Origin: an uncultured Acidobacteriota bacterium
Lineage (GTDB): Bacteria > Acidobacteriota > Vicinamibacteria > Vicinamibacterales > CAVVIG01
Length of the DNA: 64,000 bases
Direction: 5' to 3'
NCBI GenBank assembly: GCA_963792785.1
Contig: CAWBXO010000004.1
Location: 770,278 to 834,277, forward strand
A program made the position numbers and the translations under genes. Shown here in pieces: positions 7,083 to 60,013 of this stretch. The notes under the pieces are model-generated. The model made no database searches. It was given only the letters and a program-made list of their open reading frames with translations, and had not been told where the DNA came from. Each line of letters begins with the position of its first letter. Position 1 is the stretch's first letter.

Positions 7083-7229
7083 TAAGGTGCCGGGTGCCGG
7101 GGGCTTGGTGCCTGGAAGGTGCCTGGTGAGGGGGCTCGGTGCGGTCGCCGCACCCGGCACCTGGCCCCTGGCACCTGGAACGTTCCAGGCGCCCGGCACC
7201 AAGCACCGGGAACTGACACGATTCGATCG
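7083..7229. repeat. Dyad-symmetric spacer rich in GGTGCC / GGCACC words between convergent genes
   Basis: GGTGCC occurs four times on the left (7088-7124) and GGCACC three times on the right (7157-7201). There is a central hairpin GGTGCGG-tcg-CCGCACC (7139-7155) and a perfect 16-bp palindrome CCTGGAACGTTCCAGG (7175-7190). No U-tract is present. Confidence 0.6.
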
Positions 7230-7821
7230 TTAGCTGCCGCCGGCCTTGCGGGGCGTCGTCGAGCGGCGCTTGACGTCCTTCGCGGGCGCCGAGGCCTTCT
7301 TGCCGCCGCCGGCGTCGCCGTCGGCCTTCTTGCCGCGCATCTTCTCGGCCGCGGCCTTGAGCCGGCCGCCCACGCCCTTGGACTTCGGCTTGGGCGCCTC
7401 GGCGCTCTCCTCGCCGGCCTTCTGCTTGCTCGGGTCGAACTCGCTGCCGACCAGCTCGATCTGCGCCACTTCGGCGCTGTCGCCTCGGCGGTATCCCAGG
7501 CGCAGCAGGCGCGTGTAGCCGCCGGGCCGCGACTGGAACCGCGGCGCCAGCGTGTCGAACAGCTTGCCGACCACCGCGGTGTCCTGCAGGTCGTGCATGA
7601 CCAGCCGGCGCGCGTGCAACGCCTTTCCATTCTCGCCGCCGCTCACGCCGCGCTTGGCGATCGTGATCAGCCGCTCGACGAACGGGCGCAGCTCCTTGGC
7701 CTTCGGCAACGTCGTCGTGATGTGCTCGTGACTGCAGGAGCGCCGTCGCCTGATTCCGCAGCAGGGCAAGACGGTGCTCGGTGACGCGGCCGAGCTTCCG
7801 GTGTGCGACTCGATGTCTCAT
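7230..7821 (-). CDS. rplQ: 50S ribosomal protein L17 with an apparent 1-nt insertion near 7731 and a long Lys/Ala-rich C-terminal tail
   Basis: [30 protein letters not shown] is in one frame and [28 protein letters not shown] in the next. Removing the T in CTGCAG-T-CACGAG restores a canonical L17. Confidence 0.9.
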
Positions 7822-7834
7822 GTTTCTATGCCGT

Positions 7835-8821
7835 CTATTCCTGTGCCGAGGCGGCCGGCTGGTCGACGCGCATGCCGAGGCTCAGCCCCATCGTGTGCAG
7901 GATTTCCTTGATCTCGTTCAGGCTCTTGCGCCCGAAGTTCTTCGTCTTCAGCATCTCGGCTTCGGTCTTCTGCACCAGCTCGCGAATCGTCCGGATGTTC
8001 GCGTTCTTCAGGCAGTTGTACGACCGTACCGAGAGCTCGAGCTCCTCGACGCTCTTGTCGAGGTTCTCGTTGCTCATGCCGACGCGCGGCGCGTCCGGCG
8101 AGGCCTCGGCCGCCTGCTCGACGCCGTCCTCGAGGTTGATGAAGATGTTCAGGTGGTCTCGCACCAGCTTGGCCGCGAGCGACACCGCGTCGCGCGCGTT
8201 CACGGACCCGTTGGTCCAGACGTCGATCGTCAGCTTGTCGTAGTCGGTCGTCTGGCCCAGGCGCGCCGCCTCGACCAGGTAGTTGACCTTCTTGATCGGC
8301 GAGTGCACCGAGTCGATCGGAATCCAGCCGATGCCCAGGTCCTCGTCGAAGTTCTTGTCGGCCGCCACGTAACCGCGGCCGCGCTTCATCCGCATCTCCA
8401 TCTGGAGCTTGCCGCCCTCCGCCACGGTGGCGATGTGGGCGTCGGGCTCGAGGATCTCGACGTCGGCGTCGGCCTGGATGTCGCGGGCGCGCACTTCGCC
8501 CGGCTTGTCCACGCGCAGCGTGAGCGTCTTGGTGTGATCCACGTGGAGCTTGAGCGGGATCTGCTTCAGGTTGAGGATGATGTCGGTCGCGTCCTCGACC
8601 ACGCCGGGGATCGGCGAGAACTCGTGCAGCACGCCCTCGATCCGGACGGCCGTGATGGCCGCGCCCTCGATCGACGACAGCAGCACGCGCCGAAGCGCAT
8701 TGCCGATCGTCGTGCCGAAGCCGCGCTCGAACGGCTGCGCATAGAACCGCCCGAACCGATCGGTGAGCGTCTCGCGCTCGACTTCAAGCCGCTTCGGCCG
8801 CTGAAAACCTCTCCAGAGCAT
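7835..8821 (-). CDS. rpoA: DNA-directed RNA polymerase alpha subunit
   Basis: 328 aa with canonical N-terminal and C-terminal domain sequence ([24 protein letters not shown]). Confidence 0.97.
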
Positions 8822-8841
8822 GTGCTGTCCTTTCGTCCACG

Positions 8842-8900
8842 GGCCCGCAGACGGGCCTCCAGACCTGCAAGTGAACCGCCGGCCTCCCGCCGCAGGTCTG
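8842..8900 (-). promoter_or_regulatory. Two stem-loops in the 114-nt rpsD-rpoA spacer
   Basis: GGCCCG-caga-CGGGCC (8842-8857), and CAGACCTGC / GCAGGTCTG (8860-8868 pairs with 8892-8900). Confidence 0.3.
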
Positions 8901-8935
8901 TGTAAGGCTGCGGGCCGGCGGGCAACGAGAACGGG

Positions 8936-9565
8936 TTACTTCGAATACAACTCGACGATCAGCTGTTCCTGCACGGGCAGGTTGATCTGCTCGCGCGTGG
9001 GGACCGAGACCACGCGGCCGCTCGTCGCCGAGGCGTCGAACAGCAGCCACTCCGGGATCCCGCGGCCCTTCACTTCCTCCATCGCGTGCTCGATGGTCGG
9101 GTTCGTCCGGCTCCGCTCGAGCACGGTCACGAGGTCGCCCGGGCGCACCGAGTACGACGGGATGTCGACCTTCTTGCCGTTCACGAGGAAGTGCCCGTGG
9201 CGCACGAGCTGCCGCGCCTGCGGGCGCGACGTCGCCAGGCCCAGGCGGTAGACCACGTTGTCCAGGCGGCGTTCGAGCAGCTGCAGCAGCGTCTCGCCCG
9301 TGATCCCGCGCGTGCGCTCCGCCGCTTCGAAGTAGCGCCGGAACTGGTCCTCGAGCACGCCGTAGATGCGCTTCACCTTCTGCTTCTCGCGAAGCTGCAG
9401 CCCGTAGCCCGAGAGCTTCTGGCGGCGCGACTTGCCGTGCTGGCCTGGCGGGAAGTTGCGCTTCTCGATCGCGCACTTCTCCGTGTAGCACCGCTCCCCC
9501 TTCAGGAAGAGCTTCATGGCTTCCCGGCGGCAGAGCCGGCAGACCGGACCGATGTAACGCGCCAT
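8936..9565 (-). CDS. rpsD: 30S ribosomal protein S4
   Basis: [26 protein letters not shown]. The start overlaps the rpsK stop by 1 nt. Confidence 0.97.
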
Positions 9566-10014
9566 TACACTCTCCTCCGCTTCGGCGGACGGCACCCGTT
9601 GTGCGGAATCGGGGTCACGTCGCGAATCGACTTCACTTCCAGGCCGACGGTCTGCAGCGCGCGGATCGCCGATTCGCGGCCCGAGCCCGGTCCCTTCACG
9701 CGCACGTCGAGCGACCGCATGCCGACGGCCTTGGCCGCGTTGCCGGCCGTCAGCGCGGCCTGCGTGGCCGCGTAGGGCGTGCCCTTGCGCGAACCCTTGA
9801 AGCCGATGCCCCCGGCGCTCGACCACGCCACGACGTTGCCCTCGGTGTCGGTGATCGTCACCAGGGTGTTGTTGAACGACGCCTGGATGTGCGCCAGACC
9901 GTGGTGAACGATGCGCTTCTCACCGCGCTTCTTGAACGTCTTCTTGCGCTTGCCCGCGCCTTCCTTCTTGTCGGGCAGCGTGGAGGCGTCGACCGTCGGT
10001 TCGTTCTTTGCCAT
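9565..10014 (-). CDS. rpsK: 30S ribosomal protein S11 with a basic N-terminal extension
   Basis: [26 protein letters not shown] ... [16 protein letters not shown] at 10014. Confidence 0.96.
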
Positions 10015-10018
10015 AGAG

Positions 10019-10393
10019 TTAGACCGTCTTCTTCTTCGCGATGGCGCCCTTGCGCGGGCCCTTGCGCGTGCGCGCGTTGGTCCGCGTCCGCTGGCCCTTG
10101 ACGGGCAGCGAGCGACGGTGGCGCATGCCACGGTAGCAGCCGATTTCCATCAGCCGCTTGATGTTCATCGACACTTCCTTGCGGAGGTCGCCTTCCACGC
10201 GGCCCTGTTCCTCGATCACGCGGCTGATCTTCCGCACGTCGTCTTCCGAGAGATCCTTCACCCGGATGTCGGGGCTGACCCCGGCGTCCTTGAGGATCCC
10301 GCTCGAGCGGACCCGGCCGATGCCGAAGATGTAGGTCAACCCGATTTCCACGCGCTTCGTGCGCGGCAAGTCCACGCCTGCAATTCGAGCCAT
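10019..10393 (-). CDS. rpsM: 30S ribosomal protein S13
   Basis: [26 protein letters not shown]. Confidence 0.97.
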
Positions 10394-10394
10394 G

Positions 10395-10508
10395 TCAGCC
10401 CTGCCTCTGCTTGTGCTTCTGGTTCGGGCAGATCACCCGCACCACGCCGCGGCGCCGGACGACCTTGCACTTGCCACAAATCCGCTTCACCGACGCTCGG
10501 ACCTTCAT
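10395..10508 (-). CDS. rpmJ: 50S ribosomal protein L36 (zinc-binding form)
   Basis: Hand-translated as [37 protein letters not shown]. It is below the ORF-track length cutoff. Confidence 0.93.
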
Positions 10509-10511
10509 TCG

Positions 10512-10718
10512 TTAACCCCTGACCTTCTCCACGATCCGGCCCCGTCCCGGATCGACGGGCGAAACCTCCACCCGCACCCGATCTCCGACGAGCAGCCGGA
10601 CGAAATTCCGGACGCCCTGGCCGTCCGGCCGATCCGACGCATGCGCGACGACCAGCGGACCGTCCTCGAGCCGCACGCGGTAGAGCCCGCTCGGCAGCGC
10701 CTCGACCACCGCGCCCAT
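10512..10718 (-). CDS. infA: Translation initiation factor IF-1 (start uncertain)
   Basis: S1-like core VVEALPSGLYRVRLEDG ... LLVGDRVRVEVSPVDPGRGRIVEKV. ATG at 10718 has GAGGGG 6 nt upstream. The ORF is continuous with map (no stop), and an alternative N-terminus MDEAPVRAERVEG lies in another frame from 10762. Confidence 0.75.
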   Translation of the reverse strand: MGAVVEALPSGLYRVRLEDGPLVVAHASDRPDGQGVRNFVRLLVGDRVRVEVSPVDPGRGRIVEKVRG

Positions 10719-11579
10719 GAGCGCCCCTCGACTCGCTCGGCGCGCACGGGCGCCTCGTCCATCAGCGCCGGGCGGCCACCGCGCCGGTCGCGCCGAGGCC
10801 CGCTCGTCCGTGGCCCGCGCGCCGTCGCGGCGCCGCGCCGTCAGCACCCGCGGGCCGTCCGCCGTGACGGCGACCGTGTGCTCGAAGTGCGCCGACAGGC
10901 TGCCGTCGCGCGTCACCGCCGTCCACCCGTCGCCCAACACCTTCACCGCGGCCTTCCCCGCGTTCACCATCGGCTCGATCGCGAGCACCATCCCCTCGGC
11001 CAGCCGCGGCCCGCGGCCCGGCTCGCCGTAGTTCGGCACCTGCGGCTCCTCGTGCATCCGCTGGCCGATGCCGTGGCCCACGAACTCACGGACCACCGAA
11101 AACCCGTGCGCCTCGACGTGCGCCTGCACGGCGTGCCCGATGTCCGAGACCCGGCCGCCCGGCCGCGCGCACGCGATGGCCCGGGCCAGGGCTTCGTCCG
11201 TAATGCGCAGCAGCAATGCCGCGTCGTCCGAAATTCGGCCCACCGGCAGCGTCATCGCGCTGTCGCCGTAGTACCCGCCAAGCGCCGCGCCGACGTCGAT
11301 CGACAGGATGTCGCCCTCGGTCAGCGTCCGCGACGCCGACGGGATCCCGTGGATCACCTCGTCGTTGATCGACGCGCAAATCGTCGCCGGGTACCCGTGG
11401 TACCCCTTGAAGGCGGGCGTCGCGCCGGCGGCCCGGATCGTCCGCTCCGCCATCGCGTCGAGCTCCGCCGTCGTCATCCCCGGCGCCACGTGCGCCGCCA
11501 GTTCCGTGAGCACCTCGCCCACGAGGCGCCCCGCCTCCTGCATCCGCTCCAGCTCGGCCGCCGACCGGCAGACAATCAT
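10719..11579 (-). CDS. map: Type I methionine aminopeptidase (3' end undefined: no in-frame stop before infA)
   Basis: MIVCRSAAELERMQEAGRLV ... FEHTVAVTADGPRVLT. ATGA overlap with the adk stop. After VLT the frame runs through an Arg-rich stretch directly into infA. Confidence 0.85.
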
Positions 11580-12238
11580 GCCCGCGCTCCGATCCGGCCG
11601 CCCGCCGCCTCGACGGCCCGCTGAATGTCGGCGAACACACGCGCCGTCTCCTGCGCGCCGTTCACCGTGCGAAACATCGGCCGCGCCCGGTAGTACTCGA
11701 CGAGCGGCTGCGTCTGCGCGTAATAGACCTGCAGGCGCGTCCGCACGGCCGCCTCGTTGTCGTCGCTGCGCTGCACCAACGCGCCCCCGCAGCGCCCGCA
11801 CGTGCCCCGCGCGGCCTGCGCCGCATCCGCCGGGACCTGGCACACCGCGCAGACCCGGCGCGACGACAGCCTCCGCACCAGCTCCTCGTCCGGCACCTCG
11901 ATGTTCACGACCACCAGCGGGTCGCGGCCGTCGACGATCCGATCGAGCTCGGTCGCCTGGGCGACCGTCCGCGGAAAGCCGTCGAGGATGAACCCCTCGG
12001 CCGTGTCCGGGCGCGCGAGGCGCTCCTCGACGATGCCGATCACCACGTCGTCACTCACGAGCTGGCCCGCGTCCATCACCGCCTTGGCGCGCTTCCCGAG
12101 CTCGGTGCCCGCCGCGATGGCCTCGCGCAGGATGTCGCCCGTCGAGATCTTGGGGAGCCCCCGCGTCGCGGCCAGCTCGCCGGCCTGCGTGCCCTTCCCC
12201 GCTCCTGGCGGCCCGAGCATGATCAGGTTCAGCGCCAT
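11576..12238 (-). CDS. adk: Adenylate kinase with Cys4 zinc lid
   Basis: P-loop GPPGAGKGTQ. Lid is CAVCQ...CGRCGG. Confidence 0.96.
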   Translation of the reverse strand: MALNLIMLGPPGAGKGTQAGELAATRGLPKISTGDILREAIAAGTELGKRAKAVMDAGQLVSDDVVIGIVEERLARPDTAEGFILDGFPRTVAQATELDRIVDGRDPLVVVNIEVPDEELVRRLSSRRVCAVCQVPADAAQAARGTCGRCGGALVQRSDDNEAAVRTRLQVYYAQTQPLVEYYRARPMFRTVNGAQETARVFADIQRAVEAAGGRIGARA

Positions 12239-13621
<1,383 letters not shown>

Positions 13622-13631
13622 GGTCCGTCCG

Positions 13632-14078: not shown

Positions 14079-14082
14079 CGTG

Positions 14083-14114
14083 AGTTCCCCAGCTCCCCAG
14101 CTCCCCAGTTCCTC
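14083..14114. repeat. 4 x 8-nt tandem array in the rpmD-rplO spacer
   Basis: Plus strand reads AGTTCCCC AGCTCCCC AGCTCCCC AGTTCCTC. The sense strand reads GAGGAACT GGGGAGCT GGGGAGCT GGGGAACT and ends 4 nt before the rplO ATG. Confidence 0.9.
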
Positions 14115-14118
14115 AGCG

Positions 14119-14319: not shown

Positions 14320-14340
14320 GGTTCCTACCTTGCTCCGCCC

Positions 14341-15236: not shown

Positions 15237-15244
15237 GGTCGCGC

Positions 15245-24923: not shown

Positions 24924-24927
24924 GACT

Positions 24928-24955
24928 GATCCCTAATCCCTAGTCCCTGATCCCG
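24928..24955. repeat. 4 x 7-nt tandem array in the rpsG-fusA spacer
   Basis: Plus strand reads GATCCCT AATCCCT AGTCCCT GATCCCG. The sense strand reads CGGGATC AGGGACT AGGGATT AGGGATC and ends 4 nt before the fusA GTG. Confidence 0.9.
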
Positions 24956-24957
24956 AG

Positions 24958-38764: not shown

Positions 38765-38766
38765 CG

Positions 38767-38808
38767 CACCCAGCACCTAGCACCTAGCACCCAGCACCTA
38801 AAGCACCC
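38767..38808. repeat. 5.7 x 7-nt tandem array spanning the CBS stop codon and the CBS-DDAH spacer
   Basis: Plus strand reads CACCCAG CACCTAG CACCTAG CACCCAG CACCTAA ag CACCC. Sense units are (A/G)GGTGCT. The array ends 2 nt before the DDAH ATG. Confidence 0.9.
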
Positions 38809-46086: not shown

Positions 46087-46987
46087 TCAGGCGGCGGTGC
46101 CGTAGACGCCGCGATACGACGCCGGCAGCAGCTCGGCGATCCGGCGCCCCACGACGTCCATCAAGACGCGGCGATCCCCGCCCGCGTCGGCGCGCAGCGC
46201 CGCCGCCGCGATCGGCCGGCCCGCGCGCGCGTGAATCGGCACGATGTGGAGCGATTCGTCGCCGACGGGAAACAGCGCCTCGGTCCCCGTAATCCCGATC
46301 GGCAGCACGAACCGGGCCGGCCCATCCAGGTAGCGCGCCACGCCGGGCAGCGCCGGCTGCATGCCGCTCGTGCGGCTGCGCGTGCCCTCGACGAACACCA
46401 GCACCGCGTCGCCGAGCGCGAGGCGCTCGTGGGCGATCTCGATCGACCGCCGCGCCGCGCGCGCCACGTCGCGCGGGTTCATCACCGCGTCCTCGGACGA
46501 CAGCGCGCTGCTCTGCGGCGTCTTGATCGTGCCGAAACAGAGGCTCGAGAAGCGGCGGCGCGTGCTCGAATACACTTTCGGGCCCGCCATCACCGTGAGG
46601 CGATCCGCCAGCTCGTCGCCGCCCGCGCGGTGCAGCAGGATTTCAATCAGGTTGGCGTCGGAGTACCGACAGGTGGTTGACGACGATCAGCGCGGGCTGC
46701 CCCGCCACGGCGCCGACGTGCTCCAGGCCCTCGAACGCCGAGCTCGGCTCGAGCAGCCAGTCCGCCAGCACGTGGTGCACGCGCCGCGCGAGCGGGTCGG
46801 GCGGCGAGTACGTCCAGTCCTGCCCCGCGCGGGCGAGCCGCTCGTTGAGCGAGACGAGCGCCGCCGGTCCCGCGGCATCGATCTCGCGCTTCAGGGCCTG
46901 ACGAAGGTCGGCGATGCCGCCGGACTCCTGATTGGCCAGGAATCCCGTGATGGCGCCGACGATGGCGTCGCGGCCGAAGACGGGCAC
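46087..46987 (-). CDS. PlsC-family lysophospholipid acyltransferase with an apparent 1-nt insertion near 46666-46667
   Basis: VVNHLS is in frame 1. Deleting a G in TCG-G-TAC restores NHLSYSDANLIEILL (HX4D) and joins it to FVEGTRSR in the second ORF. Length minus 1 nt is divisible by 3. Confidence 0.8.
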
Positions 46988-47111
46988 GGGCTCTAGTAAA
47001 CCGCCCCGGCGCCCGATCTGGCAAGGGCCCGCGCGGCGCCGCGGCTTCCCCGCATCACCCTATGCGGCCGTGGTGAAAGTCGACACGGCCTGCGAGGCAC
47101 AGAAAACTGGG

Positions 47112-47173
47112 CCACAGAGACACGGAGACACCGAGAAAACCCTGGCATTCTCTGTGTCTCCGCGTCTCTGTGG
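47112..47173. other. Long hairpin (26-nt arms, 24 of 26 positions paired, 10-nt loop) within a multi-hairpin 220-nt spacer
   Basis: CCACAGAGACACGGAGACACCGAGAA / TTCTCTGTGTCTCCGCGTCTCTGTGG. On the minus strand it is followed by CCCAGTTTTC. Flanking stems are at 47050-47067, 47066-47090 and 47090-47096 paired with 47189-47195. Confidence 0.6.
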
Positions 47174-47221
47174 TTGCTGCCTCCGGGTCTCGCAGCCCAG
47201 AGGCACTTCTGCCACGGGCTG

Positions 47222-49423: not shown

Positions 49424-49487
49424 AATTACCCAATTACCCAATTACCCAATTACCCAATCACCAGATCACCCAATCACCACATCACCA
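49424..49487. repeat. 8 x 8-nt tandem array filling the whole P450-cupin spacer
   Basis: Plus strand reads AATTACCC x4, then AATCACCA, GATCACCC, AATCACCA, CATCACCA. The sense strand reads TGGTGATG TGGTGATT GGGTGATC TGGTGATT (GGGTAATT)x4. Confidence 0.92.
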
Positions 49488-49490
49488 CAT

Positions 49491-50845: not shown

Positions 50846-50884
50846 CTGAAAAAGCAAAAGGGCGACGATCGCGCGATCGCCGCC
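50846..50884 (-). terminator. Intrinsic-terminator-like hairpin plus U-tract ending 5 nt before the P450 ATG
   Basis: Sense strand reads GGCGGCGATCGC GCGATCGTCGCC, followed by CTTTTGCTTTTT, then CAGCC and ATG. Confidence 0.55.
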
Positions 50885-50896
50885 CTCCGTCTGGTG

Positions 50897-50929
50897 AATC
50901 ACCAGATTAGCAAAATTACCCAATTATCA
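50897..50929. repeat. Degenerate relative of the 49424 array (AATCACCA, GATTAGCA, AATTACCC, AATTATCA)
   Basis: It shares the words AATCACC and AATTACCC with the array on the other side of the P450 gene. A promoter-like TTGGCC-17 nt-TAATTT is embedded on the sense strand (50913-50941). Confidence 0.6.
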
Positions 50930-50943: not shown

Positions 50944-51234
50944 CTATTTGAGGTGCTTGCTGACCAGCTTCGTCATCTGGAACATGTTGACCGACGACTT
51001 GCCGCCGAACACGGCCTTCAACGCCGCGTCCGCGTTGATCATGCGGCGGTTCGTCTTGTCCTGGAGCTTGTGCTTCTTGATGTACTCCCACAACTTCTTG
51101 GTGACCTGCGTGCGCGGCAGCGGCTTGGAGCCGACCACCTCAGCGAGCGCCGCGCTGGGCGTCATGGGTTTCATGAACGCCGCGCTCGGTTTCCGCTTGG
51201 ACTTCTTCTTCGCCTTCTTCGCCTTCTTCGCCAT
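50944..51234 (-). CDS. SWIB/MDM2-domain protein with a lysine-rich N-terminal tail
   Basis: MAKKAKKAKKKSKRK, then LAEVVGSKPLPRTQVTKKLWEYIKKHKLQD. Confidence 0.85.
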   Translation of the reverse strand: MAKKAKKAKKKSKRKPSAAFMKPMTPSAALAEVVGSKPLPRTQVTKKLWEYIKKHKLQDKTNRRMINADAALKAVFGGKSSVNMFQMTKLVSKHLK

Positions 51235-53773: not shown

Positions 53774-53803
53774 GAGCGTGACAACCTCGGCGCGCGGGAA
53801 ACG

Positions 53804-54877
53804 TTACAGGCAGGCGCGGGCGAAGGCGCCGAGGCTGCCGAGTTCGGTCGTCAGGCCGCCCAACCGGCGGCCGTCCTGCTCCCCCCGCACCGCGCGAATG
53901 TACGTGCTCGAGGCGTCGAGCGGCAGCGCCGACACGTTGCCGCAGAACGCCTCCCACCGCCCGTCCTGGCGCAGGTACGGCTCGACGTTCGAGAGGTAGA
54001 ACACCGAGACCGGCGCGTCCCTCGCGCTGAGGAACGCCGCCACGCCCCGCAGCGCCGTCGGCCCGCCGAAGTCGCCGACGATCGGCACGATCAGGTTGCG
54101 CGCTTCCAGGTCTTTGACGAACTGGTACGAGGCGTCGTTCGCCAGAAAGCTGCGCGGACGGCCCTCGTCGTCGGTCGACGCGATCAGATCGGCGAAGGTC
54201 GGCTGGCTCGTCGTGGCGCCGCCCTCGCTGGAGGAATAGTGCAGGCCGGGACCGTAGCGCGCGAACGATCCGTAGATCTGCTCGATGCCGTCGAGCTCCT
54301 CCTGTGAAAGCGGCAGGTGGTGCGTCGAGACGAGCTGACCCTGGATCGCCGCGAGCGTGCGAGTGTACGTGTCGGTGTCCCGCGGCACACGTTCGAACGC
54401 CGCGAAGATCTGGCCAGGCGAGGCGCCGGGCGCGAGGCCGTCGGGCCGGGGGCGCGCGAAGAGCCGGGCGACGAAGTCCACGCGATCCGCCGACAGCTCG
54501 AAGAGCGCCTTGTACATCAGCTGCAGATCGCGATTGCCGCGGCGGATGTCGACGATGAACGCCAGCGACGGGCGGATGGCCGCGATGTAGGTGAAGTTCT
54601 GCTCAGGCCCGACGCCGAGGTAGACGCCGCCGGGCGCGATCGCGCGCTGCAGGCCGGGGACGACGGACTGATAGCCGGCTTCGTTCGAGACGAGGTTGTC
54701 GGATCGGAAGAAGCCGTTCGGCTCGGAGAGCGTGGTGGCGAGCTGCCAGAACTCGGCGTCGCTCAGCCGGTCGGGCAGCGCGGGCTCGCCGAGGCGTCCG
54801 GTCGAGGCCGGGCGGAACCACGCGAGGCACACCGCCATCGTCGCCGCGGCGACGAGCAGGGAGCGTCGTGTCAACAT
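53804..54877 (-). CDS. Conserved-looking hypothetical exported protein
   Basis: 357 aa with N-terminal signal RRSLLVAAATMAVCLA. No family recognised. Confidence 0.5.
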   Translation of the reverse strand: MLTRRSLLVAAATMAVCLAWFRPASTGRLGEPALPDRLSDAEFWQLATTLSEPNGFFRSDNLVSNEAGYQSVVPGLQRAIAPGGVYLGVGPEQNFTYIAAIRPSLAFIVDIRRGNRDLQLMYKALFELSADRVDFVARLFARPRPDGLAPGASPGQIFAAFERVPRDTDTYTRTLAAIQGQLVSTHHLPLSQEELDGIEQIYGSFARYGPGLHYSSSEGGATTSQPTFADLIASTDDEGRPRSFLANDASYQFVKDLEARNLIVPIVGDFGGPTALRGVAAFLSARDAPVSVFYLSNVEPYLRQDGRWEAFCGNVSALPLDASSTYIRAVRGEQDGRRLGGLTTELGSLGAFARACL

Positions 54878-54902
54878 CGCCTCGTCCGTCCCTGTGGCGC
54901 AT

Positions 54903-54908
54903 TATAAT
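54903..54908 (+). promoter_or_regulatory. Perfect TATAAT hexamer 8 nt before the bcp ATG (possible leaderless mRNA)
   Basis: The divergent spacer is 39 nt. There is no SD before the ATG at 54917 and no good -35 element. Confidence 0.3.
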
Positions 54909-54916
54909 CGCCGGTC

Positions 54917-55387
54917 ATGCCCCTCATCGACGCCGGCAAGAAAGCGCCCGCCTTCACCCTCGTGGATCAACACGGCAAGACCCATCGGCTCGCCGACTAC
55001 GCGGGCCGGCCGGTCGTGCTCTACTTTTACCCGAAGGACGACACGCCGGGCTGCACGCAGGAGTCGTGCGACTTCCAGGCCCGCCTGCCGAAGTTCCGAT
55101 CGGACAAGGCCGTGATCCTGGGCGTCAGCATCCTGGACGAGAAGAGCAAGGCGAAATTCGCCGACAAGCACGGCCTCACGTTCCCGCTGCTCGCCGACGC
55201 GGACCACGCCGTCGCGGAGAAATACGGCGTCTGGCAGAAGAAGTCGCTCTACGGCCGATCGTTCATGGGCATCGTGCGGACGACCTACCTCATCGGGCCT
55301 GACGGCAAGGTGGCGAGGCGCTGGGACGGTGTGAAGGTCACCGGCCACGCTGAAGAGGTGTTGGAGGCGCTGCGCGGCGATCGGTGA
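54917..55387 (+). CDS. bcp: Thioredoxin-dependent peroxiredoxin Bcp
   Basis: VVLYFYPKDDTPGCTQESC. Confidence 0.92.
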   Translation: MPLIDAGKKAPAFTLVDQHGKTHRLADYAGRPVVLYFYPKDDTPGCTQESCDFQARLPKFRSDKAVILGVSILDEKSKAKFADKHGLTFPLLADADHAVAEKYGVWQKKSLYGRSFMGIVRTTYLIGPDGKVARRWDGVKVTGHAEEVLEALRGDR

Positions 55388-55393
55388 AATGCA

Positions 55394-55915
55394 CTACCCC
55401 GAGGCCACTCGTGCCAGGGCCTCGCCGTCCAGCCGATACACCGTCCACTCGTCCATCGGCCGCGCACCGAGGCTGCGGTAGAAGCCGATCGCCGGTTCGT
55501 TCCAGTTCAGCACCGACCATTCCATCCGCCGGCAGTCGCGCTCGGCGGCCAGGCGCGCGACGTGCGTGAAGAGCCGCTTGCCGAACCCGCGCCCACGCCA
55601 CCGCTCGTCGACGAAGATGTCCTCGAGGTACATGCCGGGCCGGCCCCAGAAGGTCGAGAAGGAATGGAAGAACACGGCGAAGCCCACGGGCTCCCCGTCC
55701 GCGTAGCCGATCGCGGCCTCCGCGTACGCGCGTGGCCCGAAGAGCGTGTCGGCGAGGTCCGCCTCCGTGGCGACGACCTGGTGCGGCAGGCGCTCGTAGG
55801 CGGCCAGCGCCCGGATGAGCCGCAGCACCGCGGCTTCGTCGCCGGGCCGCGCCGGGCGAATCTCGAAGGTCACATCGCCGGCCATCGGCCGGAGTAAACC
55901 ATTTCGACCCGACAC
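55394..55915 (-). CDS. GNAT-family N-acetyltransferase
   Basis: GTG at 55915 is preceded by TAAGGAGGT. Carries the RGRGFGKRLF acetyl-CoA motif. Confidence 0.85.
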   Translation of the reverse strand: MSGRNGLLRPMAGDVTFEIRPARPGDEAAVLRLIRALAAYERLPHQVVATEADLADTLFGPRAYAEAAIGYADGEPVGFAVFFHSFSTFWGRPGMYLEDIFVDERWRGRGFGKRLFTHVARLAAERDCRRMEWSVLNWNEPAIGFYRSLGARPMDEWTVYRLDGEALARVASG

Positions 55916-55932
55916 TCGTCTACCTCCTTACC

Positions 55933-58432
55933 GTGCTCACCCTGAAGTTCGCCCTCAGGAGTTTCGCCCGCACGCCGTTCGTCACCGCCGTGGCCGTGGC
56001 CTCCCTGGCATTCGGGATCGGCGCGAACACGGCAATCTTCACGATCTTCAACCAGCTGCTGCTCCGGCCGATGCCGGTGGACGCCCCGGCCAGCCTCGTG
56101 AACCTGGGAGCCCCCGGACCCAAGCCGGGCTCCACGTCGTGCAACCAGGCGGGCGACTGCGATCAGGTGTTCAGCTACCCGATGTTCCGCGATCTCGAGC
56201 GCGAGCAGTCGGTGTTCACGGCCGTCGCGCTGCACCGCGCCTTCGGCGCGAACTTCGCGATCGACGGCCAGACGATCAACGGCGAGGCGCAGTTCGTCTC
56301 CGGCAGCTACTTCCCGATGCTCGGCCTCCACCCGGCGCTCGGACGGCTCCTCGGGCCTGCCGACGACCGCGCGCCGGGCGAGTCGCCCGTCGCCGTGATC
56401 AGCCACGCCTACTGGCAGACGCACCTCGCCGGCGATCCGGGTGTCGTCGGCCAGGCGCTCACCGTCAACGGCGAGCCGCTGACGATCGTCGGCGTGGCGC
56501 CGGCGGGCTTCGACGGCATGACGCTCGGGTCGCGCCCCTTCGCGTATGTCCCGGTCACGCTGAGCGACACGCTGGACCGCGCGCCGGGCCGGCTCGAGAA
56601 CCGGCGCTCCTACTGGGCCTATCTCTTCGCGCGGCTGAAGCCGGGCACGTCGCTCGAGCAGGCGCGCACGGCGATCAACGTGCCGTACCACGCGATCCTC
56701 GACAACGTCGAGGCCGGCCTCCAGACCGGGATGAGCGATCAGACGATGGAGCGCTTCCGCGCAAAGTCGATCCTCGTCTCGCCCGGTGCGCACGGCCAGA
56801 GCCAGATCAACACGGAGGCCGTCGCGCCGCTCACGCTGCTGCTCGGCGTCGCCGCGTTCGTGCTGCTCATCGCGTGCGCCAACGTGGCCAACCTGCTCCT
56901 CGCCCGCGCGGCCGCCCGGCAAACCGAAATCGCCGTGCGGCTCGCCATCGGCGCGAGCCGCTGGCAGCTCGTGCGGCAGCTCCTGTTCGAATCCTGCCTG
57001 CTGGCCCTGGCCGGCGGCGCCGCGGGCCTCGTGGTGGCGCGCTGGACGCTTCAGGGCATTCGCGCCATTCTCCCCCCCGAAGCCACGAGCACGATCCAGT
57101 TCACCATGGACTGGCGGGTGCTCGTCTTCGCCGCGGTCGTCGCCCTCGGCACGGGACTCCTCTTCGGCCTGTTCCCGGCGTGGCAGGGCACGCGGCCGGA
57201 TCTCATCGCCTCGATCAAGACGCAGGCGGGCCAGTCGTCCGGCGCGCGCGCGGCCGCGCGCTTCCGGTGGTTCCTCGCGACGGCCCAGATCGCGCTGTCG
57301 ATGGCCCTGCTCGTGTCGGCCGGCCTGTTCGTGAAAAGCCTGGTGAACGTGAGCCGCGTGGCGCTGGGCATCTCCACCGAGAACGTCGTGACGTTCGGGG
57401 TCTCGCCCGCGCTGAACGGCTATCCGCCCGAGCGCTCGCGCGCCCTGCTGACCGAATTGGAAGACCGCCTCGCCGGCATGCCCGGCGTCGACGGCGTCAC
57501 GGCCGCGCGCATCCCGGTCCTCGCCGGCAACAGCTGGGGCACCAGCGTGCGGGCGGAGGGCTTCGACGCGGGGCCAGACACCGACACCAGCTCGCGGCGG
57601 AATGAAGTCGGGCCGGGCTACTTCCACGTGATGGAGGTGCCGATCCTGGCCGGGCGCGAGTTCACCGACGCCGACGCCATCGGCGCGCCGAAGGTGGCCG
57701 TCGTCAACCAGGCGTTCGCGAAGAAGTTCGGCCTGGCCGATTCCGATCGGCCGACGCATCGCCCTCGGCCGCGAGGAGGGACAGCCGCTCGACATCGAGA
57801 TCGTCGGGCTCGTGCGCGACGCCAAGTACAACGACGTGAAGGAGGCCGCGCCGCCGCAGGTCTTCCAGCCCGCGCGCCAGGACGAGAGCCTCGGCTCGGC
57901 CTACTACTACATCCGGACAGCGGGCCGCGCCGAAGACTTCCTCGCCACCGTGCCGAAAGTGGTGTCGAGTGTCGACGCCACCCTGCCCGTGGAGGAGCTC
58001 CGGACGCTGCCGGACCAGGTGCGCGACAACATCTTCCTGGACCGGTTCATCACGATCATGTCGTCGGCGTTCGCCGGCCTGGCGACGCTGCTGGCGGCCA
58101 TCGGCCTCTACGGGGTGCTCGCCTACACGGTGGCCCAGCGCACGCGCGAGATCGGCGTCCGGATGGCCCTCGGCGCCGAGCCGTCACGCGTCCGGGCGAT
58201 GGTCCTCCGCCAGGTGGGGATGATGACCGCCGTCGGCGGCGCGGTGGGCCTGGCCGCCGCCATCGGGATCGGGCGGCTGGCGGGGTCCCTCCTCTACGAG
58301 CTCGATGGCTCGGACCCGATCGTCCTCACGTCGGCGGCCGTGGCGCTCGCTCTCGTGGCCCTCGCCGCCGGCTACGTGCCGGCCCTGCGCGCGTCGCGCG
58401 TGGACCCGATGCGCGCGCTCCGTTACGAATAA
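55933..58432 (+). CDS. ADOP-family duplicated orphan permease, copy 3, with an apparent frame break near 57738-57746
   Basis: LKFALRSFARTPFVT...FGIGANTAIFT runs through KKFGLADS in frame 1. IGRRIALGREEGQPLDIEIVGLVRDAKYNDV ... RVDPMRALRYE is in the next frame. Length minus 1 nt is divisible by 3. Confidence 0.85.
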
Positions 58433-58510
58433 CGACACTTAGCTTTTCTTTACGATCTTTTCACTGCAAGACAACTGGAGCGCCGGACCCAAAGCCGCGA
58501 CACTCCGCCC

Positions 58511-59077
58511 ATGCACGCACGCGGGTGCGGCGGCCGGCTGGCAGCGAGTGGACTCGCGATGGCCTTCGCCTGCCTCCCCGCTGTGATCTCCGCCGCCGGC
58601 GAGTCCGAACTCGTCAGCCACGACTCGCACATCCGCACCACCGACCGGCAATTGCGCGCGGCGCTCGACGATGGCATCGCTCACTCGGGCACGTTTCAGG
58701 GGCTCGTCACCCACCTCGAAGCGTCCGACGTCGTCGTGTTCGTGGTGTACGACCGCAAGCCGGGGCAGAACCTCGCGTCGAAGATCTCGTTCGTGTCGGC
58801 GGCGGGCGGGCGGCGGTACCTGACGATCGGCCTGATGACGCGGCTGCCGCGGGTGCGGCAGGTGTCGATCCTCGCGCACGAGCTGCAGCACGCCGTGGAG
58901 ATCGCCGACGCGCCGGCGGTGGTGAGTACCGCGTCGATGGCGCGCTACTACGCGGGGCTGAAGTACGCGGGCGTCCTGGACGCCAACGTCGATCACCGCT
59001 TCGAAAGCCGCGCGGCCATCACGGTCGAGGAGACCGTGGCGCGCGAGATGCGGCCGTTCGTGCGCAAGGCCGACTAG
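58511..59077 (+). CDS. Hypothetical exported protein with an HExxH motif (ILAHELQHAVEI)
   Basis: 188-aa ORF with a signal-like N-terminus. It is preceded by an unusually AT-rich 78-nt spacer. Confidence 0.5.
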   Translation: MHARGCGGRLAASGLAMAFACLPAVISAAGESELVSHDSHIRTTDRQLRAALDDGIAHSGTFQGLVTHLEASDVVVFVVYDRKPGQNLASKISFVSAAGGRRYLTIGLMTRLPRVRQVSILAHELQHAVEIADAPAVVSTASMARYYAGLKYAGVLDANVDHRFESRAAITVEETVAREMRPFVRKAD

Positions 59078-59101
59078 CGGCACTCGCCGCGCGCGCCGCC
59101 G

Positions 59102-59884
59102 TCAGTTGAGATCGCGCGACAGGATCAGCTTCAACTGCAGGTTGTCCGACCCGTCGGTCAGCCCGAAGCCGATGCCCGCCTCCCAGTCGAAGAACCCGCC
59201 GGAGCGATCGACCACGCCGAAGATCTGGTGCGACTGCTCGCTCTTCGGCGCGAAGTCGTGCAGCGGCCCGTACTCGGCGTACTCCTCCAGCGCCACGGCC
59301 CATTCCGGCGACGCGTTGTAGGCGACGCGGATCGATGGCGCGAACACCAGGTTCTTCAGGCCGTCGTAGGACGTATCCAGGATCGGATTGACGATCACGT
59401 CCACCGGGTGCAGGTGCCAGCCGAGGATCGGGCGAATCTCCGACGTGATGCGCTTCTCGTCCCAGTGCTTCGAGTTCACGCTGAACTCGAAGTTCACGCC
59501 GTAGACGAACCGGCGGTCGTCGCCGTTCGGCACCGCGAAGAGCGCGCGCAGCTTGAACCCGTCGATCAGGGCGCCCTGGTCCGCGTCGATGCTGTAGAGC
59601 GGCATGTACAGGCCCGCCTCGAACCAGTTCGTGACCCCCAGCGCCCATTCCGGCACGCCGTTCAGCGAGTGGTGCGAGACCACGGCGCCGGGGAATGCCG
59701 GATCCTTGATGCCATCGGGCGTGAAGTTGTTGTGCAGCGTCAGGTTGAACGTCCCGACCGGGGCCAGTCCGCCGTCGTACACCTGGATTTCGTCGCCCTG
59801 CGCGTGCGCGAGCGCCGGGGCGAGCCCGAGCGTCAGGACCACAGCGGCGATGCGTCCACAGAATCGAAGCGTGCGTGTGTGCAT
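59102..59884 (-). CDS. Outer-membrane beta-barrel protein (MetA-pathway/transporter-like)
   Basis: Signal MHTRTLRFCGRIAAVVLTLGLAPALAHAQ. Alternating beta-strand pattern with an aromatic-rich C-terminus. Confidence 0.7.
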   Translation of the reverse strand: MHTRTLRFCGRIAAVVLTLGLAPALAHAQGDEIQVYDGGLAPVGTFNLTLHNNFTPDGIKDPAFPGAVVSHHSLNGVPEWALGVTNWFEAGLYMPLYSIDADQGALIDGFKLRALFAVPNGDDRRFVYGVNFEFSVNSKHWDEKRITSEIRPILGWHLHPVDVIVNPILDTSYDGLKNLVFAPSIRVAYNASPEWAVALEEYAEYGPLHDFAPKSEQSHQIFGVVDRSGGFFDWEAGIGFGLTDGSDNLQLKLILSRDLN

Positions 59885-59915
59885 AGCCGCAAATCCTACC
59901 GCAAACCCGTGACCC

Positions 59916-60013
59916 GACCCACCCGACCCACCCGACCCACCCGACCCACCCGACCTACCCGACCTACCCGACCTACCCGACCTACCCGACCTACCCGCCC
60001 CACCCGCCCTACC
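59916..60013. repeat. 11 x 9-nt tandem array upstream of the outer-membrane protein gene
   Basis: Plus strand reads GACCCACCC x4, GACCTACCC x5, GCCCCACCC, GCCCTACC. The sense strand reads (GGGTAGGTC)5(GGGTGGGTC)4. The last unit overlaps the stop codon of the upstream gene. Confidence 0.95.

Follow-up and report, generated by a model that had tools for sequence, protein, structure and literature searches.

Short tandem arrays of 7–9-nt units in the intergenic spacers of a Vicinamibacterales genome and its relatives

Several of the gene spacers in the 64,000-nt stretch of DNA analysed here (the window) are filled by short tandem arrays, and the question is what these arrays are. A preliminary description listed six of them, plus a spacer composed of GGTGCC words. 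All are present, displaced by a few bases at most, as judged by TRF and by reading of the sequence, and all the listed arrays are non-coding in a gene map based on a codon model. The members of the family in the window are as follows.

7086–7144, no strand assigned: G-rich arm, GGTGCCN words on the plus strand (TRF, sequence, fold)
7148–7210, no strand assigned: C-rich arm, GGCACCN words on the plus strand, complement of 7086–7144 (fold, coordinates)
14083–14117, minus strand: 8-nt array of about 4 units, (A/G)(A/G)CTGGGG (TRF, sequence)
24927–24957, minus strand: 7-nt array, GGGAYYA ×4 (TRF, sequence, Pfam S7/EF-G)
38766–38808, minus strand: 7-nt array, (C/T)T(A/G)GGTG ×6 (TRF, sequence, Pfam)
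47112–47173, no strand assigned: two-arm hairpin of 8-nt units, arms 47148–47173 and 47112–47137 (TRF for 47113–47136, fold)
49424–49490, minus strand: 8-nt array, TGGTGATN ×4 then GGGTAATT ×4 (TRF, sequence)
50897–50929, minus strand: degenerate array, same words as 49424–49490 (TGATAATT GGGTAATT ... CTGGTGAT) (sequence)
59912–60013, minus strand: 9-nt array of 11.3 units, GGT(A/G)GG(T/G)CG (TRF, sequence)

The hairpin at 47112–47173 is a further family member, absent from the preliminary list. The flanking genes were assigned using Pfam (L30/L15, S7/EF-G, SWIB/P450 and others), and in every one of the single arrays the G-rich strand is the sense (minus) strand. The 40-nt L30–L15 spacer is filled by an array that begins 1 nt past the L30 stop, ends 7 nt short of the L15 ATG, and reads in sense order CGCTGAGG AACTGGGG AGCTGGGG AGCTGGGG AACT. 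The 34-nt S7–EF-G spacer is also filled, by the units GGGATCA GGGACTA GGGATTA GGGATCA, which make up a canonical G3N4 ×4 quadruplex motif and leave a gap of 5 nt to the EF-G GTG. At 38766–38808 the units (GGGTGCT TTAGGTG CTGGGTG CTAGGTG CTAGGTG CTGGGTG) overlap two genes, a PLP-enzyme/CBS gene at its stop codon and an amidinotransferase-like gene in its start region. The array at 49424–49490 has a G3 ×4 motif and fills the 71-nt spacer past the P450 stop. Its degenerate counterpart at 50897–50929 is located within the SWIB 3' UTR, 14 nt past the SWIB stop, with a terminator hairpin and T-run (50857–50888) between it and the P450 start. Finally, the 59912–60013 array consists of GGTAGGTCG / GGTGGGTCG units, begins at the stop codon of the ORF at 60009–60590, and has a strong quadruplex propensity (G4Hunter 2.12). 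The arrays had been described as ending 2–32 nt before a start codon; the 50897–50929 array is an exception, at 53 nt from the P450 start, and the 59912 array is at 27 or 69 nt, depending on the start chosen. The ribosomal superoperon contains five spacers longer than 30 nt (34, 40, 43, 114 and 125 nt), not four as first counted, and the 10-nt direct repeat mentioned for one of them probably corresponds to a tandem duplication of 12 nt located at 8839–8862.

The arrays are a real family with one common architecture, restricted to spacers and to certain lineages. In the 6.1 kb of spacer DNA of the window, six arrays (period 7–9, at least 3.5 copies) were counted; 200 shuffles that preserved dinucleotides gave 0.04 on average and never more than 2. 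When the window and its relatives are taken together, 106 of 132 arrays are intergenic, though intergenic DNA makes up only 11% of the total, a 33-fold enrichment (p = 3e-76). Period 7 is the commonest (87 arrays, against 14 and 5 for periods 8 and 9), and the modal copy number is four. Array density is 4.5/kb in co-directional spacers, 3.0/kb in convergent and 0.66/kb in divergent ones, the promoter-containing spacers thus being depleted. Over the same ribosomal operon, five Vicinamibacterales loci (L001, L004, L007, L009 and L011) have 0.4–1.0 arrays/kb, and of 66 loci at a greater distance, most of which belong to other phyla, 56 have none. The arrays had been seen as lying close upstream of start codons, but the upstream stop codon is abutted at least as tightly: the median gap is 1 nt from stop to array and 14 nt from array to start, so that stops are often abutted and starts are normally kept about 14 nt clear. 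Junctions in which stop and start overlap never bear arrays in the junction table.

In the window and relatives, the arrays are usually paired as two inverted arms, which gives a long hairpin. The GGTGCC-word spacer is an element of this kind, located in the convergent spacer between an EF-G paralogue (plus strand) and L17 (minus strand). Its G-rich arm comes first whichever strand is read, and the predicted folds of the two strands have energies of −89 and −84 kcal/mol. The hairpin at 47112–47173 has units CACAGAGA CGCGGAGA CACAGAGA ... TCGGTGTC TCCGTGTC TCTGTGG. Where a spacer contains two arrays, in 23 of 28 cases the second unit matches, after rotation, the first one's reverse complement (3.9 in a shuffled-partner control). 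The G-rich arm adjoins its 5' neighbour 58 times out of 64, the neighbour showing its stop 44 times and its start 41 times; among 79 cases, the partner arm is downstream 51 times and upstream 11 times. The full form would be two inverted arms of around four units each, bracketing the spacer and capable of a 25–50 bp hairpin, and the six single G-rich arrays of the window may be one-arm forms.

The sense-strand G-richness first noted holds for the single arrays of the window, but not for the class, which has no preference for the transcribed strand. In relatives from the same order, 45 arrays have G>C on the sense strand and 41 have C>G, and in 41 co-directional metagenome spacers containing the window's GGGTAATN unit, the G strand is sense 17 times and antisense 24 times. 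Sense versus antisense folding is 12:13, and G·U pairs are 75:75. A weaker form of the idea does survive, in that arrays reaching start codons are preferentially G/purine-rich on the mRNA: in relatives, arrays within about 6 nt of a start are G>C in 8 cases and C>G in 1, compared to 37:40 for those farther away (p = 0.031), a test that includes only 9–14 near-start arrays and gives p of about 0.03–0.05 depending on the threshold. We infer that the pattern in the window comes from a filter at ribosome-binding sites combined with element geometry. In operon spacers of 21–71 nt an array would overrun the −5 to −15 region, so that the orientations surviving would be those with G/purine-rich, Shine-Dalgarno-compatible words on the mRNA. 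This filter fails to cover the 50897 and 59912 arrays (two of the six sense-G arrays), because neither overruns a ribosome-binding site.

The resemblance of the unit cores to Shine-Dalgarno or anti-16S-tail words turns out to be one of composition. For none of the arrays is pairing to the 16S 3' tail stronger than for its own mononucleotide shuffles, and the −20 to −1 regions supplied by arrays fall at the 13th to 73rd percentile among the window's genes for anti-Shine-Dalgarno pairing, which is ordinary. Three arrays do carry canonical G3+ ×4 quadruplex motifs, as claimed, and a quadruplex is present in all three minimum free energy structures (ViennaRNA with G4 energies). The arrays are not, however, organised around quadruplexes: a G3 tract is missing from most units in relatives, and the mean copy number is 4.53 with a tract and 4.54 without. 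The four-unit mode is equal in units without G tracts, which weakens the link to quadruplexes.

Comparison of orthologous spacers shows that arrays are gained, lost and resized quickly. Presence, unit sequence and copy number all vary, arrays are not kept at orthologous junctions, and the same junction holds different units in different genomes. The S8–L6 junction, for example, is 6 nt long in the window and 68–125 nt, with differing units, in five relatives. The syntenic contig L081 is without arrays, and lacks both the ORF at 60009–60590 and the 59912–60013 array. Between near-identical flanks, unit number and unit sequence change rapidly: L157 and L191, whose flanks are 99% identical, have 6 and 8 units respectively and differ by numerous unit substitutions and by a 14-nt indel in the loop. 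The P450-end array goes with the 3' end of its upstream gene; L082 has a related GGGRAATG ×4 array at the orthologous P450 3' end, and a different downstream gene. Dozens of unrelated unit sequences occur inside one genome, and some units recur: AATGCTG is found at four junctions of L007, AGCTGGA at at least five and in L007, L009 and L011 alike, and GGGTAATN at at least 120 metagenome loci. The spacers that hold arrays also contain another element, around 90 nt long and clearly dispersed. In three comparisons synteny breakpoints coincide with arrays, with breaks or extra genes directly beside them.

Our preferred explanation, to which we give a probability of roughly 60%, is that the arrays are slippage-prone, strand-symmetric, fast-evolving long-unit SSRs at the DNA level, tolerated in non-promoter spacers. 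Slipped-strand mispairing would add and remove units, whose lengths are 7, 8 and 9 nt, only 9 being a codon multiple, and selection would purge coding DNA, promoters and ribosome-binding sites of arrays. Slippage and neutrality are both putative; perfect 50-bp palindromes such as those in L106 and L107 could also point to selection for pairing. Because a unit family can be shared by many spacers of one genome and by several genomes, which is beyond local slippage alone, a process of dispersal or sequence-specific seeding is also needed.

On a rival reading, the arrays would be copies or pieces of a small element under active mobilisation (REP/BIME-, MITE- or foldback-like) with inverted arms of tandem units. 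A dedicated enzyme, for instance a RAYT-type transposase, would disperse it, and the single arms would be decayed or truncated copies. The sharing of unit families by many non-orthologous spacers, within and between genomes, is consistent with this, as are the palindromic architecture with its fixed internal polarity, the match to the REP/BIME niche of co-directional and convergent spacers, the breaks or extra genes flanking arrays, and the dispersed 90-nt element. However, unit number varies continuously, no fixed length, target-site duplication or terminal inverted repeat beyond the units was seen, and no candidate transposase was noticed in the 64 kb of the genome that were inspected. Furthermore, arms of one family enclose loops of unrelated sequence, so that whole elements are not simply copied. 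We regard a mobilised element as possible but doubtful. A function in the mRNA, with the arrays as cis-acting sense-strand elements (multi-copy Shine-Dalgarno-like landing pads and/or RNA quadruplexes) tuning the downstream cistron, is improbable. The G-rich mRNA strand of all six window arrays, the three quadruplex motifs with their predicted structures and the purine/G-rich start-touching arrays, found in relatives as well, argue for it, and related G-rich heptamers from Xanthomonas and Nostoc form quadruplexes in vitro (PMC4692102). It is opposed by the lack of a sense-strand bias in relatives and in the GGGTAATN family, the absence of G·U asymmetry between strands, Shine-Dalgarno complementarity at shuffle level, unchanged copy number in the majority of units that lack G tracts, and the turnover at orthologous junctions, including the P450 array that is tied to its upstream gene.

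Very improbable, in our view, is a role in the DNA itself, in which a nucleoid, topoisomerase or replication-associated protein would bind the arrays as phased sites, or the arrays would adopt a non-B form (cruciform, G4 or i-motif) affecting replication or recombination. Strand symmetry, the lack of a transcription-direction signal and the coincidence with synteny breakpoints would fit such a role, and E. coli BIMEs are bound by gyrase and IHF. Dozens of unrelated units per genome are nevertheless contrary to there being one sequence-specific binder, orthologous sites turn over fast, and no protein partner is known. Assembly or sequencing artefacts can be set aside almost completely. Tandem repeats mis-assemble in principle, and nothing else was found in favour; the idea is effectively refuted by the same architecture in dozens of independent assemblies from differing projects and technologies, by the related array at the orthologous L082 site, and by array lengths of no more than 102 nt, below the typical read length.

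The arrays are neither CRISPR nor REP, as originally stated, but they are not an undescribed class, having precedents in Xanthomonas and Nostoc (PMC4692102) and in Beggiatoaceae (PMC4679880). Rehm et al. (2015, PMC4692102) described G-rich heptameric SSRs, GGGAATC in Xanthomonas and GGGGA(C/T)T in Nostoc PCC 7120, which have a preference for four units and a non-coding bias, and are enriched between aligned and depleted between divergent ORFs. They lie up to 50 bp from ORF ends, on the coding strand past stops or the non-coding strand before starts, and form convergent inverted pairs (70–75 per Xanthomonas genome); close relatives differ in length and sequence, and no function was identified (PMC4692102). 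The features in common with our arrays include the tandem 7-nt units with a G3–4 tract, the modal four units, the biases in placement, the inverted pairing and the variation between close relatives, and the S7–EF-G array has almost the same unit. They differ in having many unrelated units rather than one dominant unit per genome (mostly non-G-rich in relatives), 8- and 9-nt units as well, a four-unit mode independent of G tracts, a density reaching about 1/kb in the ribosomal operons of some relatives, and a host in the Acidobacteriota. As summarised by Rehm et al. (PMC4692102), the survey of LSSR5-11 (5–11-nt units) by Mrazek et al. (2007) found heptamers over-represented in large high-G+C genomes of non-pathogens, and interpreted them as a tendency to expand by polymerase slippage, not as a specific function. 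Over-representation of heptamers is common to both studies; the paired inverted architecture and the stop/start placement rules are described here. That survey reportedly predates the Vicinamibacteria genomes and is said to contain neither of these features.

TAACTGA direct repeats occur in the intergenic DNA of Beggiatoaceae, Cyanobacteria and Bacteroidetes, where arrays of 2–6 copies or more precede starts by a few nt, also within ribosomal protein operons (before fusA, L3 and S4), and their downstream genes have no functional pattern (MacGregor, 2015, PMC4679880). They resemble our arrays as heptamer arrays near starts and inside ribosomal protein operons, but are a single heptamer conserved across phyla, mostly direct with one inverted case, whereas here there are many families, predominantly as inverted pairs. 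The STRR heptamers of Calothrix and Anabaena, reportedly described by Mazel and colleagues in 1990, are likewise said to be several tandem families dispersed in the intergenic DNA of one genome; they have a cyanobacterial host and differing units, and reportedly served mainly as typing markers, with no placement rules described. A worked example of how a two-arm array could act is the (ATCTTTC)n 5'-UTR of H. influenzae hmw1A, where the transcribed heptamer SSR and a complementary arm form a long RNA hairpin that is cleaved by RNase III, and where expression is adjusted through the number of repeats (Rapun-Araiz et al., 2025, PMC12721329). It is, however, one contingency locus, a phase-variable surface adhesin of a pathogen with 10 or more repeats (PMC12721329). 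Our arrays are instead spread over hundreds of housekeeping spacers, where processing by RNase III would be hypothetical. The REP unit of enterobacteria and pseudomonads is an imperfect palindrome with a fixed length of 20–40 nt. REP/BIME elements share the spacer types, transcript hairpin potential, dispersed families and lineage specificity of our arrays, whose arms are, in contrast, non-palindromic 7–9-nt tandem units of variable number, with no RAYT identified. Foldback (FB) transposons are similar in architecture only, with long inverted arms of short tandem repeats and a heterogeneous centre; they are eukaryotic and kilobase-scale, and some have transposase genes.

No report of such arrays from Acidobacteria was found in the literature. 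The arrays belong to the known heptamer-dominated intergenic repeats of Xanthomonas, Nostoc/Calothrix and Beggiatoaceae, here in a soil lineage of Acidobacteria, the Vicinamibacterales, which hosts them in almost any non-promoter spacer. They would not be gene-specific regulators. The effects on RNA, with a possible quadruplex in each of three arrays and a long hairpin in each of two spacers, are most likely incidental, though translational coupling, RNase III processing or mRNA decay may be modulated by them.

The arrays of the window are real and occur well beyond chance. Every array named in the preliminary description was recovered by Tandem Repeats Finder and confirmed in the sequence, and reading them unit by unit gives head-to-tail units with periods of 7, 8 and 9 in 4 to 11.3 copies. 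Six arrays were observed in the window's 37 spacers, compared with 0.04 under the same criteria in 200 dinucleotide-preserving shuffles of these spacers. All of the arrays lie in spacers of a minus-strand gene series, as defined by a codon-log-odds gene map and a Pfam scan of 20 window ORFs adjoining arrays. The series includes the ribosomal superoperon (S12, S7, EF-G, S10 ... L30, L15, SecY ... RpoA, L17).

Arrays of the window, with the evidence for each
14083-14117, minus (sense): NNCTGGGG x4; Tandem Repeats Finder and sequence
24927-24954, minus (sense): GGGAYYA x4 (extent of the G-quadruplex motif 24927-24957); Tandem Repeats Finder and sequence
38766-38808, minus (sense): YTRGGTG x6; Tandem Repeats Finder and sequence
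49424-49490, minus (sense): TGGTGATN x4 then GGGTAATT x4; Tandem Repeats Finder and sequence
50897-50929, minus (sense): degenerate version of the words at 49424-49490; sequence
59912-60013, minus (sense): GGTRGGKCG x11.3; Tandem Repeats Finder and sequence
7083-7229: two-arm spacer, one half GGTGCC words and the other half GGCACC words; sequence
47112-47173: two-arm hairpin of 8-nt units, absent from the preliminary description; fold and sequence
Four-unit RNA forms of the array repeats: (GGGAUCA)4, (GGGUAAUU)4, (GGGUGGGUC)4

The arrays at 7086-7210 and 47112-47173 are of a two-arm type, an inverted pair in one spacer, and the six originally listed are single arms. Two details are here corrected. 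Five spacers of the superoperon exceed 30 nt, not four, and the arrays do not all stop 2-32 nt before the downstream start codon: 53 nt separate the 50897 array from the P450 start, and a terminator hairpin and T-run (50857-50888) lie within them.

The same ribosomal region in 80 genomes (an L4-based scan, one genome per species) served as a natural control. The L4 comparison assigns the window to the order Vicinamibacterales of the Acidobacteriota, with a best identity of 78%, so that its own species is absent from the collection. The region carries 0.4-1.0 arrays per kb in the Vicinamibacterales loci L001, L004, L007, L009 and L011, and 1.6 per kb in an acidobacterial MAG, L026 (57% G+C; 16 arrays in 10 kb). 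No arrays are present in 56 of 66 other loci, which are mostly from other phyla. The window is therefore a mild case of a condition spread across the lineage. Array density is high in genomes of the L007/L009 type and near zero in those of the L002, L005, L012 and L081 types. Paired inverted heptamer arrays are also seen in the ribosomal-operon spacers of L026, L029 (a Selenomonadales MAG) and L065 (a deltaproteobacterial MAG), and so the paired inverted architecture arises in several phyla.

In the window and 14 same-order loci, 106 of 132 arrays are intergenic, although intergenic DNA makes up 11% of the total (33-fold enrichment, p=3e-76). The proposal of a family that shares tandem 7-9-nt units and is confined to spacers rather than coding sequence is borne out in related genomes. 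Period 7 predominates among the intergenic arrays (87, with 14 of period 8 and 5 of period 9), the most frequent copy number is 4 and the median length is 31 nt. Density is 4.5 per kb in co-directional spacers, 3.0 in convergent and 0.66 in divergent ones. The median gap between a stop codon and the array beside it is 1 nt; between an array and the start codon that follows it the median gap is 14 nt, which leaves space for a ribosome-binding site (RBS).

The arrays of the relatives mostly occur as pairs in one spacer, with a first array running from the upstream stop codon, a loop, and a second array ending a few nt before the downstream start codon. Of 28 spacers with two arrays, 23 have a second unit that matches the first, after rotation, as its reverse complement, compared with 3.9 expected for shuffled partners. 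The arms are thus complementary, and the spacer therefore folds as a long hairpin. An example is L007 11894-11992, (CAGCTTC)4 ... (GCTGGAA)4, with a fold of -54 kcal/mol. In L001, the closest relative, one hairpin is (GGGTAATC)n ... (GATTACCC)n, and its unit is a near-match to GGGTAATT of the window.

A metagenome scan for (GGGTAATN)3, which supplied an independent sample, found at least 120 loci, and orientation was counted on contigs with at least 58% G+C. Among the matches listed from these contigs, the arrays are intergenic in 94 of 98. With the G-rich strand taken as top, 58 of 64 arrays among the matches listed adjoin the neighbour on their 5' side (median distance 16 vs 87.5 nt). Of 79 arrays among the matches listed, 51 have a complementary arm downstream and 11 have one upstream. 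The neighbour on the 5' side of the G-arm faces it with a stop codon in 44 cases and with a start codon in 41, among the matches listed. Such geometry, with the G-arm first whichever strand is read, marks a DNA element that is symmetric between strands and not one oriented by the transcript. In the two-array spacers, folding favours the sense strand in 12 and the antisense strand in 13, and G.U pairs number 75 and 75; selection at the RNA level, for which a G.U pair on the sense strand would become an A.C mismatch on the antisense strand, thus shows no asymmetry there. Single-array spacers give a weak sense/antisense signal (p=0.04), driven by self-pairing of G-rich arrays. Homogenisation of one arm by the other was considered using the variable eighth base of GGGTAATN, which is complementary in 40 of 69 of the matches listed (48% expected, p=0.12, not significant).

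It had been proposed that the arrays are G-rich on the sense strand. This holds in the window, whose six arrays in co-directional spacers include five that are G-rich and no C-rich one, but not for the class: the relatives have 45 arrays with G>C and 41 with C>G, and the G strand of GGGTAATN arrays in co-directional spacers is sense 17 times and antisense 24 times among the matches listed. The operon spacers of the window are 21-71 nt long, and four of the six arrays end within 7 nt of the start codon, in the Shine-Dalgarno (SD) position. The relatives are a sample independent of the window. Their arrays that end within 6 nt of a start codon comprise 8 with G>C and 1 with C>G (62% purine), compared with 37:40 and 51% purine for arrays farther away (Fisher p=0.031). 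We infer, with modest statistical support, that the sense-G pattern of the window is a survivorship filter at the RBS: an array would overrun the RBS only if it is oriented so that the mRNA retains SD-compatible words. With the same modest support, the arrays at 50897 and 59912, which do not overrun an RBS, appear to follow the geometric rule, with the G-arm beside a 5' neighbour that is a stop codon. A leading-strand G bias is not favoured, by the inferential argument that the relatives' ribosomal operons, presumably co-oriented with replication, show the same 45:41 ratio. The RBS filter is a modest new idea, and it offers a simple account of the apparent strand bias: arrays may reach stop codons, but would have either to halt before the RBS or to be able to replace it.

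The unit cores had also been likened to SD or anti-16S-tail words. When each array is compared with its own shuffles, 28-100% of these pair at least as well with the 16S 3' tail, and no array exceeds them; the short and long tails used (the long one including GAUCACC) are assumed from the general bacterial consensus. Regions -20 to -1 supplied by arrays fall between the 13th and 73rd percentile of the window's genes for 16S pairing, and are thus adequate, not special. The claim of canonical quadruplex motifs fared better. At least four tracts of G3+ separated by short loops are present in three of the eight window arrays (24927-24957, 49424-49490 and 59912-60013), and four or more such tracts with short loops were not found in those at 14083, 38766, 50897, 7086-7210 and 47112-47173. 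For the three arrays G4Hunter gives scores of 1.2-2.1, and ViennaRNA places a predicted quadruplex in the gquad MFE structure; the predicted effect is large for 59912-60013 (-93.5 vs -31.0 kcal/mol). Quadruplex formation is nevertheless not the organising feature of the class, because mean copy number is the same for units with and without G3/C3 tracts (4.53 vs 4.54). The preference for four units, once taken as evidence for G-quadruplex function, is thus equal for units unable to form quadruplexes.

Sequence comparison indicates that the arrays evolve much faster than their flanks. Orthologous ribosomal junctions differ between genomes in the presence, length and unit of the array, and both presence and copy number vary among orthologous spacers. 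The S8-L6 junction is 6 nt in the window; five relatives have 68-125 nt there, built from five different units. Arrays are never found at a junction whose stop and start codons overlap. L157 and L191 have flanks that are 99% identical, but 6 vs 8 units; the units carry numerous substitutions and the loop an indel of 14 nt. L096 and L104 have 3 vs 4 units at the same site. The nearest homologues of the window P450 are 73-81% identical, and those in the syntenic metagenome contigs L081 and L082 have 76% and 73% protein identity. Arrays are entirely missing from L081. In L082 the corresponding P450 3' end carries GGGRAATG x4, followed by a different gene from that in the window. In L082 the P450 frame runs through this array (7034-7073; C-terminus ...EGNGEMGNGVMGR, then stop), which has either been absorbed into the coding sequence or been mis-called as coding. 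In L151, with two arms, and L155, with one, homology is lost exactly at the array. Forms with one arm and forms with two interconvert.

Three independent comparisons (L151 vs L155, window vs L082 and window vs L081) show homology or synteny breaking off exactly where an array lies, and arrays may mark or promote points of rearrangement and insertion. Arrays that share words (GGGTAATT, GGTGATT) and orientation stand on either side of the P450 gene (49424-49490 and 50897-50929), and resemble direct repeats around a gene. The largest array (9-mer x11, 59912-60013) begins at the stop codon of ORF 60009-60590 (minus, 193 aa), so that an accessory-gene insertion and an array coincide; this ORF has no Pfam match, and is missing from L081, where its neighbours adjoin.

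Several known classes of element were compared with the arrays. The units are contiguous, with no unique spacers between them, and are 7-9 nt long, which agrees with the original view that they are not CRISPR. They are likewise not REP or BIME elements, as had been argued, since the units are non-palindromic and much shorter than the 20-40-nt palindromic REP unit; palindromy comes only from the pairing of two arrays. Contingency repeats for phase variation are a poor match, the arrays being outside ORFs, between housekeeping genes (r-proteins, EF-G, P450, PLP enzyme), and depleted in divergent promoter spacers. No array qualifies as an intrinsic terminator, the sole strong site (50857-50888) being beside the degenerate array and outside it, and covariance models of Rfam 15, those of ribosomal protein leaders among them, gave no match at gathering score across the whole window. 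Stop codons in the units, as a guard against read-through in all frames, show no excess over shuffled units and are equal on sense and antisense strands.

The comparisons establish that the arrays are confined to spacers and restricted to certain lineages, pair in inverted fashion, are symmetric between strands, turn over their units rapidly, are depleted in divergent spacers and are placed asymmetrically with respect to stop and start codons. Units are probably gained and lost through slipped-strand mispairing, and selection probably clears the arrays from coding DNA, promoters and RBSs. Effects on RNA are most likely side effects: the 25-50-bp intercistronic hairpins would be plausible RNase III substrates, and some arrays may form G-quadruplexes. 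The same unit families are found in many spacers and several genomes, and this recurrence needs a process of dispersal or seeding, and therefore keeps alive the alternative that the arrays are a mobile element. The loops between arms of the same family are unrelated, array length varies with unit number and no target-site duplication was seen, all of which speak against a MITE or transposition of whole elements. A bolder reading, which we consider improbable, is that the arrays of Vicinamibacterales are not junk but lineage-wide intercistronic RNA modules, in which two-arm hairpins would be sites of RNase III processing or of transcript stability, and G-rich arms standing alone would be G-quadruplex or RBS modules. 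They would make polycistronic operons, ribosomal protein operons included, into individually tuned cistrons, and would perhaps be spread by a dedicated process through which particular units of 7-8 nt are seeded where genes end.

It is worth adding some further observations. A second dispersed element of about 90 nt is non-tandem and has two hairpins (GCGCCTGCGGCCATGC ... GCATCAGCG ... GGGGGTGGGGCCCC ... CAGTG).

Copies of the ~90-nt element
Window: 60591-60702, minus
L001: 6514-6631, 8738-8905, 13426-13552, 14206-14292
L002: ~15.7-17.2 kb

A motif scan found it once in the window, three times in ribosomal spacers of L001 and four times in L002 (three in tandem); the fourth L001 copy (13426-13552) is more divergent and was spotted by eye. 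It has no Rfam match, and looks like a REP/MITE-like family specific to the lineage. At 4991-7082 (plus) an EF-G paralogue is split by an apparent frameshift near 6100, with the GTPase domain and domain 2 in the ORF from 4991 and domains III, IV and C in another frame (6195-7082); possible causes are gene decay to a pseudogene, an error in the sequence and programmed frameshifting. The codon model calls no gene at 55886-57811 (~1.9 kb) despite long ORFs on both strands, and 55886-58558 (2.6 kb) has no counterpart in the syntenic L081 and is probably an insertion of foreign composition. The 234-nt spacer 46988-47221, which holds the 47112-47173 hairpin, lies where L081 carries a second glyoxalase gene. 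Downstream, a single acyltransferase gene of L081 (313 aa) is matched by two ORFs of the window, 46643-46987 and 46087-46593, and the window gene may therefore be split or frameshifted. The 114-nt S4-RpoA spacer is highly structured (fold -57 kcal/mol) and contains a 12-nt tandem duplication outside the array family (ACGGGCCCGCAG / ACGGGCCTCCAG, 8839-8862). A perfect in-frame 9-nt x3.1 repeat (CTTCTTCGC, plus strand, 51205-51232) within a SWIB-domain gene illustrates that coding DNA tolerates only periods that are multiples of a codon.

Earlier descriptions of such repeats reportedly include the STRRs of Calothrix and Mrazek's LSSR5-11. The class had been thought undescribed, but it is already known from Xanthomonas and Nostoc (PMC4692102) and from Beggiatoaceae (PMC4679880). 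Rehm et al. (2015) reported the unit GGGAATC from Xanthomonas and the unit GGGGA(C/T)T from Nostoc, with a non-coding bias and a preference for four units (PMC4692102). These heptamers are enriched between aligned ORFs and depleted between divergent ones, lie within 50 bp of ORF ends, form 70-75 convergent inverted pairs per genome, vary in length among relatives and have no known function (PMC4692102). They share nearly every feature with the present arrays, including the strand pattern near ORF ends (PMC4692102). Slipped-strand mispairing was proposed for the heptamer excess by Mrazek (2007), as cited in that paper (PMC4692102). MacGregor (2015) described TAACTGA arrays within ribosomal protein operons, among them arrays upstream of fusA (PMC4679880). 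The heptamer hairpin of H. influenzae hmw is a comparison case for RNase III substrates, and the 25-50-bp hairpins, which would be plausible substrates of that kind, may be likened to it (PMC12721329). Our searches for tandem, heptamer or REP repeats in Acidobacteria or Vicinamibacteria found no report. Compared with the known heptamer systems, the present arrays differ in their acidobacterial host, in having numerous unit families, unrelated to one another, within a single genome, in including units of 8 and 9 nt, and in the extreme density that some relatives reach.

Gene calls are distorted by the arrays, as in the P450 ORF of L082, which was extended through one, and the arrays sit at synteny breakpoints. 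They would also suit as strain-level length markers for uncultured Acidobacteria. Some relatives have a 25-50-bp hairpin at nearly every junction of the ribosomal protein operons, which is unexpected for operons thought to be tightly packed and translationally coupled. If our reading is right, the Vicinamibacterales, an abundant and barely cultured soil lineage, would join the few groups that are saturated with heptamer-type spacer repeats.
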